Shown: positions 12,029 to 63,078, counted from the first letter of the stretch. The stretch is 64,000 nt of DNA from Candidatus Poribacteria bacterium (GCA_965215265.1 OZ244048.1:1600001-1664000), one strand, 5' to 3'. Translations and numbers: made by a program. The notes: a model not told the origin generated them from the sequence alone.

Positions 12029-12379
12029 TTTTTTGTATATCTCCGTACCATCACCGCGTATGTAATGATCACTCGTGTGTAAATTTCGCCAGTGGCAGGA
12101 TAGGTAATCTTTTCTCATGGACAGAAAAAGAATACCTTTTACCTGCCACCCACTGGGAGCCATTCTAGGTTATGATTCTTCAATCACTTTCGTCAAGCAG
12201 CCAGATGCCACTAATCGATTCTGGATCTATTAGTGCAGCACCACAACGCCTGATGTGATGTTAACCCGTAAACAAAACTCGTCGCCCGCCCACCCAAATC
12301 CTTTGATGTTTAGAATCAATACATAAGAAACCTCTGGTTGGATCAAAAGGTGCCTACAATGGGCTCCTATCCTATAAAA
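12029..12379. repeat. Composite repeat: family A left arm with nested B (12091-12157), C motif and degenerate right arm
   Basis: The A sequence is interrupted at AAATTTCGCC by GTGGCAGGATAGGT...CCTGCCACCCACTGG and resumes GAGCCATTCTAGG; a GGGCTCCTAT end lies at 12361-12379. Confidence 0.85.
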
Positions 12380-12890
12380 TTGAACGTGCATTTCGCATCA
12401 GCTTGCTGCGCAAAATGTAATCGTCTTTTCCGCGTCTAACCCGTTCCAGTTCATCCTCAGTAACATCACGTCGAACTTTCGCCGGAACTCCCATTGCTAC
12501 GGTGCCGGGTGGAATTTCTTGTCCTTCGCGCACAAGCGTTCCAGCTGCAACGACTGCGCGCTCGCCAATCGTAGCACCTGTTAGCAGGATCGCCCCCATG
12601 CCGATAAGGGCTTCGTTGCCGATCTTGCAACTGTGGAGTATAGCACCGTGCCCAATGGTAACATCATCGCCGATAACACACGGAAGCTCCTTATCCATGT
12701 GAACAACAGTTCCATCTTGAATATTAGTACGACATCCAATGCAGATGGGTTCTAAATCACCTCTGAGGACGGTGTTAAACCAGATGCTTGATTGAGAGCC
12801 AATCGTTACCTTCCCAATAATCATCGCCCCTGGGGCGATAAAAACTGAGTGATGAACGTCTGGCGTTTTTCCTTCATATTCTATCAACAT
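12372..12890 (-). CDS. Gamma carbonic anhydrase family hexapeptide-repeat protein
   Basis: IWFNTVLRGD, TNIQDGTVVH, TIGHGAILH. Confidence 0.93.
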   Translation of the reverse strand: MLIEYEGKTPDVHHSVFIAPGAMIIGKVTIGSQSSIWFNTVLRGDLEPICIGCRTNIQDGTVVHMDKELPCVIGDDVTIGHGAILHSCKIGNEALIGMGAILLTGATIGERAVVAAGTLVREGQEIPPGTVAMGVPAKVRRDVTEDELERVRRGKDDYILRSKLMRNARSIL

Positions 12891-12935
12891 ATTTTTGGTC
12901 TTGCATTTTCTTTCATTGTTATTTTGGCGTATCCG

Positions 12936-59665: not shown

Positions 59666-61495
59666 TTACGGTTCACTCGATGAGAAAGACACTGGAATAG
59701 GAATTCGCACTTCACTCAATTTGACTTTGCGCGGGGCCAAAGTCGGTTTTTCGTCAACCCTCTCTGGAAGGAGAAAGTCATCTTCAAAAACTACCACATC
59801 TTTCGTAAAGGTCCACTTTCCATCTCGATAGAAACTGAGCATCACGAGATGATGTCCCCAGCCATTCTCCGGTTCTACGCGTCTGCCAAGTACCAATTCC
59901 GCTGGAATTGTATCGCCGAGCTTCTGGCGGAGTGCTTCGTTGAAAATGTGAACTGCAACCGTTGTTGCATTTTTATTCACATCGCCTGTTACCTCGGCAA
60001 AGTACATATAGCTGTCGTCCTTAACGTAGACAGTGTCCCCGTTTCCGTAATCGGACTCGATTCTAATAGGAGTGCCGAGGTTTGGCGGCAGTGCAGAATC
60101 CTTCGCATCGTGCAATTCAATAGTTTGACTGGCTACCGCCCAATCTGTGACTTTCACGCGACGCAGATAATTCATGATTTTTTCTTCAACTTCCAAACGT
60201 TCCGAGTTAGGAACCCTCAGTGAACCACTATCTTGCGTTGGTATCAAATTCGTAATGGCTTTGCTGTCTGCAGCATGTCGCATCGCAATTACCTTGAACC
60301 GCTCAACACCTGGTGAACCCGTCAAGGCGAAAGCAAAATCAGATTGTTGGTCTGGGAAGGCGTGAATGGTGCCTGCTTCTACGAAATTGTCTTCCTGATA
60401 GGAATTGGGAAAGAGCTGTTTCAAATTGCCAGATGCATCCCAGTTAATGATTATGACGTGCGCACCCTTCGTGACGAGGATACGGAGAGTTAGGTAGTCA
60501 TTTACATGATAGATTGGAACATCGGTATTCAGAAAAGCCGAAAAACTGGCATCTGAATTTGCAAGAGTCCATAACGGACTTTCAATCCCCGGGGGTGAAC
60601 CGAATAAGCGCTTAGGCAAGGCATACGCCTCGGGCGTTTGACTCGCAATCCCTTGCTTGTGCAGCCGGTCTTTGATAGATGGCGATAATAACGGATAGGC
60701 AGCTTCGAACTGATTTTCTGTCGTTTGACGGATTAGGTCAAAGGTTTCTTCCCAGGCAAGAAACCCATCCCTGTCTCTGTCTAACTCTGAGCCGGCCGGC
60801 TGTTGAATGACGTGGAGGAGCACGTTGGTAAATACCCCCCCATGTTGTTCGTCCATCCAACCGTATTCCCCTGCACCTGCACTATCGAAATGCAAGAAGC
60901 CCTCATGTTCGAAAAAGAGATGCTTAATTTTTACGTGCTGGTCGAACATCGGGGAACCGTTATAGTCAGGTAACGGCGTTGTCTTCAGAATCCCTTTACA
61001 CCGATCGGTAATAAGAAGCTTGAGGCGGCAGTTTCCGATGTCCTGAATCATCTGTGCAAAATCGGATTGGAAAAGGTTCCCATCTTGCAGACGTACAAAC
61101 GGCTCAAGTTGCTGCCCTGTTTCCGGGGTCTTCCCGCCAAATCCGCTGAAGTAGATTAAGATGATATCTTGTTCAGCGGGGTTGACTTGGGCAAGCCACC
61201 CTAGAATACCGGTTTTGCTTGCCTCATTGTGTGAACTCAGCAGGTGTCTCTGCTTCAAATGCATATTTCCTTCATCGGCTATTGTGGTTAGCAGACTCTC
61301 CATCTTCTCTTGATTCGCTTTCATGGCGGAGCCGAGGCTTGGATCTGCGTCCATAATCACAAGTAGGGCGTGAACAGTTTGCACATTCGCGTTAACTGGC
61401 ATCGCTAGGTAAACCGAAAGCAGCACTATCCAACATAACCCATACGAAGCACGCCTTAACGTTCTCGTGAAACCGTGGCATTGCGGATGTTTCAT
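59666..61495 (-). CDS. Secreted caspase-like (peptidase C14 fold) protein lacking the catalytic His, plus DUF4384 and shared C-terminal domain
   Basis: Signal peptide; YFSGFGG in place of GHG, ITDRC; LFPN...F.L.G.PG.E.FK.IA (DUF4384-like). Confidence 0.75.
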   Translation of the reverse strand: MKHPQCHGFTRTLRRASYGLCWIVLLSVYLAMPVNANVQTVHALLVIMDADPSLGSAMKANQEKMESLLTTIADEGNMHLKQRHLLSSHNEASKTGILGWLAQVNPAEQDIILIYFSGFGGKTPETGQQLEPFVRLQDGNLFQSDFAQMIQDIGNCRLKLLITDRCKGILKTTPLPDYNGSPMFDQHVKIKHLFFEHEGFLHFDSAGAGEYGWMDEQHGGVFTNVLLHVIQQPAGSELDRDRDGFLAWEETFDLIRQTTENQFEAAYPLLSPSIKDRLHKQGIASQTPEAYALPKRLFGSPPGIESPLWTLANSDASFSAFLNTDVPIYHVNDYLTLRILVTKGAHVIIINWDASGNLKQLFPNSYQEDNFVEAGTIHAFPDQQSDFAFALTGSPGVERFKVIAMRHAADSKAITNLIPTQDSGSLRVPNSERLEVEEKIMNYLRRVKVTDWAVASQTIELHDAKDSALPPNLGTPIRIESDYGNGDTVYVKDDSYMYFAEVTGDVNKNATTVAVHIFNEALRQKLGDTIPAELVLGRRVEPENGWGHHLVMLSFYRDGKWTFTKDVVVFEDDFLLPERVDEKPTLAPRKVKLSEVRIPIPVSFSSSEP

Positions 61496-61563
61496 ATTTT
61501 ATGATCCTTTCTCTGTTCCTCTGTTTTCCTCATGAGAAAGAAGAATCCCAAGTAGAGAGTGGG

Positions 61564-63078
61564 TTACCTTGTTTCTTGACGCAAAGTGATTGTAGTCTCC
61601 GCTACCGCCCAATCGGCAGTTGGCACTTTCTGGAGTTCCCGCAAAATTTTTGTCTCTACCTTATCCCGTGGAATAATCTCCGCTTGATAATGGAAAGGGC
61701 TGTGGTCCTCAAGTGGAAGACTCTTAATAATAATGTTTTCAATTGCTTGACTAACAGCTTCATTGTGAATAGCGAGGATCTTGAAACGCTCCCTCCCTAC
61801 TGGTCCCGGGAGGATAAAATCAAAGTCGGATTCCTGCGTAGGAAATGAGTAAATTTGCCCCCGGCTTATGCTTACAAGGCGATTCGGGCTATATTGATTC
61901 GGGAGCAGCACGGTCAGTTTGCCATTTTTATCCCAATTCAATACCGTAATATAGCAATCCTTCTCCGCGGTCATATGTAAAGTGAGGTAATCATTAACCC
62001 GATATATGGATTTGTCCGTCCGGAGATTCACCTCAAAACCGGCGTTTGGATTACGCAATTCCCAGAGACTGTCGACGGGAGGTCCGGGCGGACCAGAGCC
62101 CGAACGTGAACGTTGGGGTAGTGAATAAGCCTTTGGGGTTTGGCCGGTAATACCTTTGCGTTTCATATCCGCCTTCTGGCTCTGTGTAAAATGAGGATAC
62201 GATTGTTCGTATGTCTGCTCTATGTCTTTTTGGGCTAGCGTAAAAACCTCACGCCACGTTACAAAACCGTCACCGTTCGAATCCGATATATCACTGATTA
62301 GCGCCATGAGAGCCACCGTGAAAAAGCTGCCGAATTTTACATGGCACCACGCGTATTGCCCCTCGGTAGCAGCACTGAGATGCAGAAAACCTCTGTGTTT
62401 GCCAAACAGGTCTCTGATGTAACGTTTGCTAACCGTTTCAACAGCAAAACTGCTTGCTAATACCGGCATCCGGGGCGCATTGCTGCAGGCATCCGTGATG
62501 AGCAGTTTCAATCGGCAATCCATCTGTTCTATTCTCTTAGCAAGCTCCGAACGATATAATTTTTTATCTGTGAGTTGCAAAAACGTTTCTCTATAGGTCG
62601 GGCTAACCATGCCGCCATGTCCACCATAGTAGACAAAGATGATATCGTCACGCGAAGGGCGGACCTTTCGGACCCAGGCCAACACATTATCCACCCGGGT
62701 TTCAGCGCGAGAACTGAGATAGACCGTCTTCTCGACACGGTAGACCCGGCTAATTGATGTGAGTAGCCTCTCAACTTTTTCCCTGTCGACCTCTATGGCG
62801 GGACCGATCGTTGGATTTGCGTCCATAATAATGAGCAACGCATGGACAGTTTGAGCCTCCACAGACGGCGGGATAAGAATACCACTGCTCAGCAGAAGCA
62901 GGATGACAATTGTCAATTTTTTGTATATCTTGGTAAAGAATTGTCCTTGCTGGGGCAGGGCGAATTCTTGTCCATCAACGCCTATGTGATGATAACTCGT
63001 GTGTAAATCTCGTCTGAGCCGTTCGATGTGATGTATTGAATTTAAAGATAACCTTCGAATGTTTTCAAATTTCATCAT
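61564..63078 (-). CDS. Secreted caspase-like (peptidase C14) protein plus DUF4384
   Basis: YYGGHGG and ITDACS dyad, SAATEGQYAW, GSFFT; DUF4384-like C-terminus; ATGA overlap with upstream gene. Confidence 0.85.
   Translation of the reverse strand: MMKFENIRRLSLNSIHHIERLRRDLHTSYHHIGVDGQEFALPQQGQFFTKIYKKLTIVILLLLSSGILIPPSVEAQTVHALLIIMDANPTIGPAIEVDREKVERLLTSISRVYRVEKTVYLSSRAETRVDNVLAWVRKVRPSRDDIIFVYYGGHGGMVSPTYRETFLQLTDKKLYRSELAKRIEQMDCRLKLLITDACSNAPRMPVLASSFAVETVSKRYIRDLFGKHRGFLHLSAATEGQYAWCHVKFGSFFTVALMALISDISDSNGDGFVTWREVFTLAQKDIEQTYEQSYPHFTQSQKADMKRKGITGQTPKAYSLPQRSRSGSGPPGPPVDSLWELRNPNAGFEVNLRTDKSIYRVNDYLTLHMTAEKDCYITVLNWDKNGKLTVLLPNQYSPNRLVSISRGQIYSFPTQESDFDFILPGPVGRERFKILAIHNEAVSQAIENIIIKSLPLEDHSPFHYQAEIIPRDKVETKILRELQKVPTADWAVAETTITLRQETR
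62917..63053 (-). repeat. Family A element with nested D (62936-62969), in frame in the caspase N-terminus
   Basis: CGGCTCAGACGAGATTTACACACGAG...GGCGTTGATGG-[D]-AGATATACAAAAAA. Confidence 0.9.

Follow-up and report, generated by a model that had tools for sequence, protein, structure and literature searches.

Tiny hairpin-forming repeats inserted into each other and into genes of a Candidatus Poribacteria genome

Are short palindromic repeats that lie inside one another real inserted units, and, if so, what moves them? The question is raised by the stretch of 64,000 nucleotides analysed here (the window), for which a first-pass annotation had proposed that three repeat families, B, C and D, insert into a fourth, A, and into each other, sharing a machinery that targets hairpin DNA or RNA. 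The source is a sponge-symbiont-type genome, Candidatus Poribacteria bacterium, 95% complete. We find that this genome carries several families of tiny hairpin-forming repeats, inserted precisely into each other and into genes, without the usual transposon footprints. The window holds 37 A subunits, 4 C motifs, 2 D palindromes and 11 B hairpins at 10 loci, in line with the roughly 10 B loci annotated before; across the whole genome, A reaches 865 subunits and B about 204 loci. B was located with a covariance model built from 20 genome copies and run on the window, and its left-arm pattern, with up to 3 mismatches, gave 6 window matches against 0 expected. The counts of B inside A and B and those of flanking repeats refer to 137 delimited copies, 89 of class 1 and 48 of class 2.

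Subunits of the host repeat, family A, were identified by repeat search and nhmmer with the A model on the plus strand at 10802-10890, 12029-12107 plus 12231-12319 (parts of a single unit, interrupted by B and C), 12935-13025 and, as a tandem triplet with a 61-nt period, 14753-14958; according to a Pfam scan of the neighbours, the subunits within 10802-15000 occupy gaps between minus-strand polysaccharide-synthesis genes. The same searches gave 26 more subunits in 30913-45235 (no strand assigned to the group), where inverted pairs, forming long hairpins, are frequent (30913-31084, 34028-34196, 38413-38582 and 43786-43948) and the rest are tandem or truncated. The pair at 34026-34200 folds as DNA with -22.8 kcal/mol (z = -2.7), its strongest helix being the AAATCTCGTC/GACGAGATTT core. 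Family A makes up 8% of the crudely defined non-coding DNA.

B is an imperfect hairpin of 60-72 nt, TGGCAGG..CCTGCCA, followed on one strand by a 3′ tail of 8-10 nt, which is CCCAYTGGG in class 1 and ATCTATAGAT in class 2. The foot TGGCAGG/CCTGCCA is conserved, with covarying variants, as are an asymmetric internal loop and an AGGTA/TACC box, while the distal stem varies in sequence and keeps its pairing. In the alignment 16 of 25 pairs show compensatory changes and 89% of the cells are paired, a level reached by 0 of 500 shuffles; DNA folds gave z = -8.3 and -8.6. Of 81 copies, 59 fold better on the strand with the tail and 18 on the opposite strand (G-T pairs, 34 vs 15). When tail and foot are joined in silico, the junction is a perfect palindrome in both classes, CCTGCCA-CCCAcTGGG-TGGCAGG and CCTGCCA-ATCTATAGAT-TGGCAGG. 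Orientation relative to genes is unbiased (29:32 and 18:19); relative to the GC-skew arms the bias is weak, class-1 copies standing at 63:46 between the skew extremes and 7:14 outside them, on a weak skew with very unequal arms. Some B copies are present inside a ribosomal-protein operon.

The core of A, AAATCTCG-TC(G/A)GAG, is interrupted by B at 12092, 32825 and 41284, as had been annotated, and genome-wide these places correspond to A-model positions 66 and 60-63, which with positions 36 and 54 form the B hot spots in A. The covariance model, which delineated all the B copies given here, places a class-1 B at 12093-12157 (+), after CGCCAG; a class-2 B at 32826-32895 (+), after CTCGT; and, at 41276-41354 (-), between CTCG and TCAGAG, a B whose foot reads CGGCAGG and whose tail is degenerate. 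Another A unit contains a truncated or rearranged class-1 B with a TGCGAG foot (37485-37536, -; copy 1637535). Unique intergenic DNA harbours a class-2 B with the tail AATCTATAGAT at 18773-18836 (+) and a class-1 B at 23975-24040 (+), and a further class-1 B lies at 24638-24708 (-), after AAG on the minus strand. The nesting of B in B reported at 18990 holds: a class-1 host at 18991-19125 (+) carries a class-1 copy at 19035-19099 (+), after GAGACAAAG in its right arm. At 59541 the host proved to be a C-type hairpin (CCCACCCACCCAATTCC..GGAGTTGGGCGGGTGGG; 59521-59645, +) with a B-typical tip, into which a class-1 B is inserted at 59564-59623 (+), after GGAGAG at the tip, so that this is B in C rather than B in B.

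Motif search likewise bore out the three C motifs described inside A, at 31533-31556 (+; a G-run-rich arm upstream of AAATCTCG), 34205-34228 (-; previously placed at 34209) and 35847-35870 (+). By motif inspection a solo C arm, GGATTTGGGTGGGCGGGCG, stands in place of the A-core GAG at 12283-12301 (-), and 20 A units share one C arm at one site. The A+B composite of 12093-12157 recurs at two further places in the genome; many A+C and some A+B composites may owe their spread to copying of the whole composite instead of recurrent insertion. Pattern and covariance model together identified a chimeric hairpin at 8940-9019 (-; copy 1609018), composed of a B left arm and tip, a C-type right arm GGAAAAGGGTGGGTGGGCACCA, a B foot and a class-1 tail. 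From such B/C chimeras and the many single-site A+C composites it is clear that the pattern is in part a product of recombination or unit copying. D was found where it had been reported, inside A at 62935-62969 (A-model position 20, with A resuming at 62972-63040) and, by repeat inspection, alone at 54165-54196 as AAGAATTGTCCCTGC..GCAGGGCGAATTCTT, neither with an assigned strand.

The hosts of B comprise family A, other B or C hairpins, a third host repeat here named F, unique intergenic DNA and at least one gene, and a single A position can be occupied by different B subfamilies. Against the roughly 8% expected, 31 of the 48 class-2 copies lie inside A (binomial p = 2e-22), making class 2 an A specialist, and 14 of the 89 class-1 copies do so (p = 0.018); 59 of the 89 class-1 copies are in neither A nor B, inserted after AG, and one copy is in coding sequence. 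B, C and D are genuine inserted units, and they occur at hot spots of A and inside each other far above what intergenic space predicts.

The insertion of B is precise. Removal in silico leaves a contiguous intact A unit in 45 of the 137 copies and a contiguous intact B in 20. A serine-recombinase gene is split after ..GGGACAG by an 89-nt B composite, the removal of which restores the reading frame: the upstream part carries the Resolvase domain (E = 1.4e-45) and the frame directly downstream, LSVKDICEQLHISKLTLYAYL, matches the C-terminal part of the resolvase HTH, its second half (HTH_7 positions 23-43, E = 0.0098). In repeat F, 10 of 15 copies contain differing B versions at one point, GAGAAAAG^CAGTGC, and in 3 copies this point is empty and CAGTGC follows directly. 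The 5′ flank of class 1 reads A at -3 in 78 of 99 sites, G at -2 in 85 and T at -1 in 89, and that of class 2 has T at -1 in 47 of 52, mostly as GT. B insertion is strand-specific, directly 3′ of AG (class 1) or T (class 2), and the target bases are neither duplicated nor deleted. The strong bias in orientation of B within A (39 same, 6 opposite, of 45) fits a strand-specific short motif; inside B, plus-strand insertions fall at positions 38-45 and minus-strand ones at the corresponding mirror positions, 17 and 24.

A 10-bp direct repeat, TACATCTCGT, does flank the B at 32826, as had been noticed, but it is the sole case: in only 1 of the 137 copies do the flanks share a repeat of at least 8 bp, and flanking-repeat lengths equal those of the shuffled-flank control, so that there is no general target-site duplication. 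In particular, the fixed-length duplication characteristic of DDE-type miniature elements (MITEs) was absent from the 137 B copies.

For recent activity of B speak, at the level of sequence comparison, three observations. Class-1 right ends number 112 in this genome and 0 in 30 relatives; a same-genus genome (G001) lacks B at two syntenic sites (23975-24040 and 24638-24708); and a contig from another study (X6 record 23), of a strain about 0.3% diverged, bridges a B site by joining 24641 to 24713 with 3 letters between. This allele is not the simple predicted empty site, since it has CCCAGTG where CTTC is expected. Related hairpins in sister genomes are low in copy number, so that the expansion here is a lineage-specific burst, and their tails, unlike those in this genome, are not palindromic. 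One related hairpin is kept at one place between two tRNA-like sequences in three sister genomes.

Does one machinery serve all families? C shares with B the termini TGG..CCA, both tail types and the tip; it is a sibling family of B, and one machinery for the two is plausible. D is a separate symmetric palindrome without tail that inserts at a site peculiar to it, in the middle of a GTAC of A, and the ends of A are quite different, so that a shared machinery is not obviously valid for all four families. Nor does the hairpin appear to be the target, because class 1 inserts after AG almost anywhere; with a target that looks like a short motif, the proposal of a shared machinery targeting hairpins is only partly supported.

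The search for an enzyme in the 95%-complete genome gave 0 matches for Y1_Tnp (PF01797), for which the same search was positive in 6 of 14 control genomes, and 0 each for IS110 (PF01548), TnpB (PF07282) and rve (PF00665). Y2_Tnp (PF04986) was likewise at 0, here and in all 14 control genomes, so that this zero says nothing either way. The single Phage_integrase (PF00589) match is a 139-aa fragment with a stop codon, all integrase and resolvase matches are broken, and DDE_Tnp_1 gave 4 weak matches, the best of 24 bits; among the eight families searched, no intact classical transposase or recombinase was found in the genome. Autonomous copies were not found genome-wide, in agreement with the description of B as non-autonomous, nor was a B right end with a distant left end around a gene. 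The long repeats of the genome are paralogous gene families and not a parent insertion sequence, and the ORFs between close B pairs are ribosomal-protein-like or ordinary, none transposase-like by eye.

With moderate confidence we consider B and C to be trans-mobilised, structure-specific, single-strand non-autonomous DNA elements, moved by an enzyme not found among the known candidates, none of which is present intact. The succession of a hairpin, about 9 nt and a break, with a motif on the 5′ side only and no duplication, is the geometry of 'peel and paste' elements or of HUH nick-site substrates, from which we infer that B and C would travel in the form of folded single-stranded DNA, with a structure-specific enzyme acting in trans to nick and join it. 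Given the palindromic tail-foot junction, a single-stranded circle with tail joined to foot would have the shape of a dumbbell, and the opening would lie at an edge of its second tip. The nesting would then follow, since the purine-rich 3′ arms of B, like the A core, abound in the preferred motifs, and composites would afterwards be copied as units. Against this proposal stand the want of a candidate enzyme, the single B hairpin starting at the extreme 5′ end, the weak orientation bias relative to the GC-skew arms, the complex allele of the bridging strain, the B/C chimeras and single-site A+C composites, and the non-palindromic tails of the related hairpins in sister genomes.

Among known systems, elements of the IS200/IS605 family have two subterminal hairpins, and a guide sequence precedes the foot of either one on the 5′ side. 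They and their gene-less derivatives, the PATEs (moved by the Y1 HUH transposase TnpA), resemble B in strand-specific insertion 3′ of a very short motif, absence of target base changes or duplication, and hairpin ends. B differs in having one hairpin instead of two, with the foot as its first base and no room for a 5′ guide, in a target of 1-3 nt instead of 4-5, and in a genome without Y1 transposase and TnpB. In the passages of PMC3201880 on IS608, the cut at the right end falls 10 nt beyond the hairpin foot, on its 3′ side, and insertion takes place 3′ of a tetranucleotide with no DNA gained or lost; the distance from foot to end in B, 8-10 nt, is similar to this right cut of about 10 nt (PMC3201880). 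REP/REPIN populations with a single-copy RAYT, as described in abstracts, share with B the hundreds of short intergenic palindromes, the non-autonomous state, the lineage-specific families and the populations of related copies; unlike them, B lacks a RAYT (same Pfam family, PF01797), is a single long imperfect tailed hairpin rather than an inverted doublet of short REPs, and shows precise nesting and gene insertion, neither of which those abstracts report. Family A does form inverted pairs, of 61-91 nt units, unlike short REP doublets. IS1397, ISKpn1 and IS621 are insertion sequences homing to REP hairpins and so, like B, mobile DNA landing preferentially inside another palindromic repeat, but they are autonomous and gene-bearing, whereas here guest and host are both gene-less hairpins.

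Of the alternatives, site-specific recombination of a folded hairpin by a tyrosine recombinase, as at integron attC sites or in the Xer-dependent integration of single-stranded phages, is improbable. The foot-tail-foot palindrome would here be the recombinase core, and a single strand would be exchanged where its central region ends. Integron attC sites are imperfect hairpins in which the ends and some unpaired bases are conserved and the middle, always paired, is very variable; they recombine as a folded single strand without duplication. The alignment of B displays the same conserved foot, conserved unpaired bases and variable, always-paired centre; the break coincides with one border of the palindromic spacer, 9-10 bp long, that separates the inverted arms, and B too lacks target duplication. 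That spacer exceeds the usual tyrosine-recombinase central region of 6-8 bp, however, and the targets share only 1-3 bases; the copies are dispersed, with a core sequence different from attC, in a genome without integron integrase or gene cassettes, the sole Phage_integrase match being the fragment above.

We give little credence to the view that the units are immobile and arose when structured intergenic repeats, retained because they serve the host (in processing or stabilising transcripts, for example), underwent recombination, gene conversion or replication slippage. It would accommodate the mosaic B/C hairpins with their common tip, the 20 A units with one C arm, the A+B composite at three places, the hairpin conserved between tRNA-like sequences and the copies in the ribosomal-protein operon; it is opposed by the clean insertion into coding sequence, the 59 class-1 copies after AG outside A and B, the differing B subfamilies at the same A position and the unbiased orientation. 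Equally doubtful is that Rpn/YhgA-like PD-(D/E)XK putative transposases (Transposase_31) provide the cutting that moves the hairpins. The 24 open matches are the most among 21 genomes searched, and the same-genus genome, with few B-like hairpins, has 0; on the other hand, the relatives G003, G004 and G006 possess 7-10 copies without any B match, and the genes here lie in larger paralogous clusters without B ends. We know of no report of this family moving hairpin repeats.

MITEs such as Correia, Nezha, RUP and ERIC are small, abundant, intergenic, sometimes nested, flanked by target-site duplications and derived from DDE insertion sequences. D, a symmetric palindrome with TTAA-like borders, is closest to these. 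That B and C are classical MITEs moved by a DDE transposase is very unlikely: B opens with TGG and closes with CCA ahead of the tail, its arms are inverted repeats, the TG..CA ends of which would be the terminal inverted repeats, and a few weak DDE_Tnp_1 matches exist, but the missing target duplication largely refutes this reading, and the asymmetric one-strand tail, the strand-specific one-sided motif, the zero for rve and the failure to find a parent or any long element with B ends also oppose it. Least probable is the RNA route, in which reverse transcripts of the hairpins would be inserted: in its favour the strand with the tail has a slight folding advantage and more pairs of G-U type, yet the only reverse transcriptase adjoins FGE-sulfatase paralogues and is therefore read as DGR-type, B is unbiased relative to transcription, and poly-A or priming features are lacking.

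Returning to single-strand mobilisation in trans, we tentatively raise a further possibility, to which we attach clearly less weight, that B and C represent a so-far undescribed class of elements, gene-less 'dumbbell' single-strand hairpins. An enzyme belonging to none of the known transposase families would open them at a fixed point about 9 nt past the foot and paste them 3′ of a 2-nt motif. If this is true, the enzyme could be a nuclease or an activity of ligase type encoded by the host, or the product of any of the 24 Rpn-like PD-(D/E)XK genes.

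The genome carrying the window is a single contig of 4.83 Mb with 48% G+C, in which family A, the host repeat, was identified as 865 subunits (37 in the window) using a repeat finder and a profile built from the window copies. Family A totals 64 kb, i.e., 1.3% of the genome and approximately 8% of its crudely defined non-coding fraction. Each subunit starts at a T-run (TTTTTYGTAT..) and reaches a short stretch past the core AAATCTCGTCGGAGCC, and inverted pairs form a long hairpin with the core as the most stable helix. In head-to-tail arrangements, a new A start directly follows 142 truncated matches, 108 of them at model positions 63-64. 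Regular arrays of near-identical A units, with periods of 122 nt and about 90 nt, were noted at genome positions 1,578,931-1,579,523 and 4,413,320-4,413,600. The repeat-rich part of the window carries on its minus strand a polysaccharide cluster (sulfotransferases, Wzi, a Wzy-like protein, an ABC transporter and a hexapeptide transferase), and the gaps between these genes are filled by repeats. No known RNA family was detected in the window with Rfam at gathering thresholds, nor any tRNA with ARAGORN. A 12-nt tandem repeat (AACAAGGTATAG-like, at least 5 copies) lies at window positions 2035-2118 within an ORF of 312 aa (1359-2297).

Family B is an imperfect hairpin of 60-72 nt, with a 3′ tail confined to one strand, and a profile search gave 204 merged loci genome-wide, including 11 in the window. 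The foot, TGGCAGG/CCTGCCA, has covarying variants (GGCGAG/CTCGCC, TGCGAG/CTCGCA, GACGAG/CTCGTC and GGCAAG/CTTGCC); an asymmetric internal loop (AT against TTTA) and an AGGTA/TACC box are conserved, and the distal stem varies in sequence by subfamily with its pairing kept. For 20 diverse copies, compensatory changes were found in 16 of 25 pairs and 89% of the cells were paired, values reached by none of 500 shuffles, and slid controls fell to 43-57%. As DNA folds, single copies gave z values of -8.3 and -8.6. Of 81 unique copies, 59 fold better on the strand with the tail, 18 on its complement and 4 equally on both, and G-T pairs number 34 on the tail strand vs 15 on the complement. By tail sequence, the copies fall into class 1 (CCCAYTGGG; 143 right ends, 99 paired with a left foot) and class 2 ((A)ATCTATAGAT; 52 of 91 right ends paired, the 91 including some chance matches). 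When joined to the 5′ foot, either tail makes a perfect palindrome, CCTGCCA-CCCAcTGGG-TGGCAGG for class 1 and CCTGCCA-ATCTATAGAT-TGGCAGG for class 2, and thus the inserted B corresponds to a double hairpin in circular permutation, its opening being at an edge of the second tip.

We removed in silico 137 of the 151 paired copies (14 with a non-canonical foot or longer than 200 nt were dropped) and rejoined the flanks. One contiguous A unit was restored in 45 cases (class 2, 31/48; class 1, 14/89), one contiguous B in 20, and neither in 73, one copy scoring as both. Against the 8% share of A in the non-coding fraction, the excess of B in A gave p = 2e-22 for class 2 and 0.018 for class 1. Within the A model, class 2 is concentrated at positions 54 (11 copies), 62 (6), 60-61 (4) and 36 (3), and class 1 at position 66 (8 copies); 39 of the 45 insertions share the orientation of the host, and at least some of them are independent, since one A position holds different B subfamilies. 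B hosts carry their guests at positions 38-45 (GGAG^AG^ACAAG^) of the plus strand or, for insertions on the minus strand, at the mirror-image sites. The host bases are complete on either side of the guest, as in GGAGAGACAAG^ATAACC for a B host and CGCCAG^AGCC for an A host. The cleanest insertion is in a serine recombinase gene at genome position 3,344,472, cut after ..GGGACAG by an 89-nt B composite: upstream the Resolvase domain is intact (E = 1.4e-45), and directly past the composite the same frame continues with LSVKDICEQLHISKLTLYAYL, the second half of the resolvase helix-turn-helix. A further repeat, F, is present in 15 copies, of which 10 carry B at GAGAAAAG^CAGTGC and 3 are empty, with CAGTGC following directly.

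The 5′ flank of class 1 reads A in 78 of 99 copies and G in 85, followed by T in 89, this T being the element's own base; for class 2, T is found at position -1 in 47 of 52. Flanking direct repeats were no longer than in a shuffled-flank control for the 137 copies, and the 10-bp repeat at window position 32826, pointed out in the first-pass annotation, is the sole one of at least 8 bp among them and does not represent a general target duplication. These observations show that the B unit, in which a conserved hairpin is followed by about 9 nt of tail, is inserted precisely, strand-specifically and without duplication, 3′ of a motif of 1-3 nt. The orientation of B relative to flanking genes is unbiased (29:32 and 18:19), and the bias relative to the GC-skew arms is weak. 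Cumulative GC skew is lowest near 0.66 Mb and highest near 4.46 Mb, which makes the apparent replication arms very unequal (about 3.8 vs 1.0 Mb). Three class-1 copies lie between ORFs that by eye resemble ribosomal-protein genes at 3,085,949-3,090,528, two of them flanking an rplE-like ORF.

The first-pass annotation described B, C and D as inserted into A and into each other and proposed shared machinery that targets hairpin DNA or RNA. The nesting itself stands, and the interpretation is borne out only in part. Special sensing of hairpins is not needed for nesting, because AG and GT are frequent on the appropriate strand of the A core and of the 3′ arm of B, which is rich in purines. In the class-2 tail palindrome, the outer five bases on each side (AATCT..AGATT) are those of the A core helix, a sequence match that may contribute to the strong preference of this class for A.

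The C motif proved to be one arm, rich in G-runs, of a family of hairpins built like B, with the layout TGG(C/T)NCCCACCC..tip..GGGTGGGNNCCA, the right arm being followed by CCACAGG or ATCTATAG. The tip CTCTCC/GGAGAG is common to both families, and chimeric hairpins with a left arm of B and a right arm of C were found. Among 83 matches to the motif, 31 are hairpin arms, 20 are solo arms, each taking the place of GAG at one identical site in the A core, 4 lie a short way upstream of this core, and 28 are elsewhere. The C arm GGAATTGGGTGGGTGGG, present genome-wide and at window positions 31533-31556, 35847-35870 and 59626-59640, contains four G-runs and, judged from its sequence, could form a G-quadruplex on one strand. 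Family D is a tailless, symmetric palindrome (TAAGAATTSTCCCYGC..GCRGGGASAATTCTTA), with an E variant that occurs inside B arms. Removal of 13 of the 49 D pattern candidates, some of which are spurious, rejoined A, and 10 of these 13 are at positions 20-22, the centre of GTAC in CTCCGT^ACC. The palindrome of D and E resembles a CRISPR repeat, but the four arrays of this genome (524,240-535,558, 622,350-624,091, 1,463,324-1,468,052 and 4,319,417-4,319,757, with about 170, 27, 64 and 6 repeats) carry four different and unrelated repeats, none like A, B, C or D.

In a search for the mobilising enzyme, neither Y1 HUH transposase nor IS110-type, TnpB or rve proteins were found in this genome, which is 95% complete. 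The Y2 search was uninformative, as it gave no match here or in any control genome. The single Phage_integrase match is a fragment with a stop codon, and DDE_Tnp_1 gave four weak matches; no intact XerC/XerD-type recombinase was seen in the 4.8-Mb contig. A resolvase was rejected, both Resolvase matches being broken, one by B itself, and the break of the junction palindrome at an edge and not at its centre misfits a serine recombinase; a search of 60 family genomes at E <= 1e-30 gave no close homologue. The sole abundant transposase-like genes are 24 Rpn/YhgA-like PD-(D/E)XK genes, the highest copy number of 21 genomes, the sister genome having none; no B matches were found in relatives with 7-10 Rpn/YhgA-like copies.

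No long element with B ends was found in this genome. Genome self-BLAST gave instead paralogues of FGE-sulfatase, WD40, Rpn-like, LRR and toxin-antitoxin plus methylase genes, the B right ends without a near left foot were only degraded or nested copies and chance matches, and the genes between close B pairs looked ordinary. A multi-copy cassette (about 2.4 kb; about 9 copies, 85-95% identical, at locus L001, 816,700-820,300, and 8 other places) combines an N6/N4 DNA methylase gene with a small ORF that resembles a toxin (by eye HigB) and has no Pfam match; its copies are invaded by A, B and F repeats at different points, and one adjoins the broken integrase. The F repeat (..CTCACTTACCCCCATTTTTTTTGAGAGTCGTCTGTGTGTGATATTGTTAGGTTTGTCTGTGAGAAAAG) lies upstream of multi-copy cassettes at its 15 places, e.g., 817,000 and 227,600. 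Upstream of several FGE-sulfatase and Rpn-like paralogues is a promoter-like motif close to the consensus, TTGACA-17 nt-TATTAT. The one reverse transcriptase gene (1,420,096-1,420,737) adjoins FGE-sulfatase paralogues in a region outside the window (1,416,000-1,425,700) with dozens of paralogous FGE-sulfatase/C-type-lectin-fold genes, all ending in ..GFRCARAVTP, and together they look like a diversity-generating retroelement with many potential targets.

In IS608, the right end is cut 10 nt 3′ of the hairpin foot, insertion takes place 3′ of TTAC with DNA neither gained nor lost, and the intermediate is a single-stranded circle (PMC3201880). Because the geometry of B appears to be that of single-strand elements and HUH nick sites, we favour a model in which B would be moved in trans by a structure-specific single-strand nicking and joining activity. 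Unlike the IS608-type family, with its Y1 transposase and two subterminal hairpins, B resides in a genome without Y1 and has one hairpin, at its very end; we therefore liken B to a single-strand element in its working and do not file it as one. B is a variant of the non-autonomous palindromic repeat, with an unusually explicit insertion rule. Among the listed papers on Poribacteria and palindromic repeats, and on nested bacterial MITEs, no title or opening part of an abstract describes these repeats.

The 26-nt left end of A (up to 3 mismatches) occurs 270 times in this genome and the class-1 right end 112 times, and neither was found in 30 relatives; for A these include the same-genus genome (4.0 Mb, about 76% nucleotide identity), which is syntenic and lacks B at window positions 23975 and 24638. 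With a covariance model, weaker full-length B-like matches were detected in 5 of 100 other family genomes, including 8 at about four independent places in the sister genome; three genomes of another genus carry a copy at one common place, by eye between two tRNA-like sequences. These copies keep the AGGTA/TACC box and the overall plan, but differ in their feet (TTGGGGAG, TTGAGGG) and in having tails that are not palindromic (CTCCGTGG, TCCGCTGG). A gapped pattern for hairpins native to the sister genomes was overly strict, recovering a single copy. Taken with the absence of class-1 right ends from the 30 relatives, these sequence matches indicate that B is an old, low-copy family in Poribacteria that burst and diversified in this lineage. 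The exact B right-end pattern gave no match in public genome, metagenome and viral contig collections, from which records of this genome were perhaps excluded.

Contigs of public runs end at A and B copies, and most of their joints represent paralogous repeat copies, as judged from short sides and high depth; we retained only one, from run X6 of another study, which contains a strain about 0.3% diverged. This contig bridges window positions 24641 to 24713, indicating that the B at 24638-24708 is missing in that strain. At the junction, the contig has CCCAGTG instead of the CTTC predicted for a simple empty site; these bases may be a footprint, what is left of an older copy, or an ancestral sequence of another kind.

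Bacteria commonly carry short palindromic repeats, and to our knowledge nobody knows how most of these repeat families spread. The present genome provides an unusually clean natural record, in which hundreds of precise nested insertions fix the element's ends, its strand and its target rule. With the usual enzymes not found or broken and a sister genome without the burst, the search for the responsible activity becomes tractable. In practical terms, A and B copies fragment short-read assemblies of Poribacteria, in which each such copy ends a contig, and the repeats disrupt genes and occupy core operons such as the ribosomal-protein cluster.
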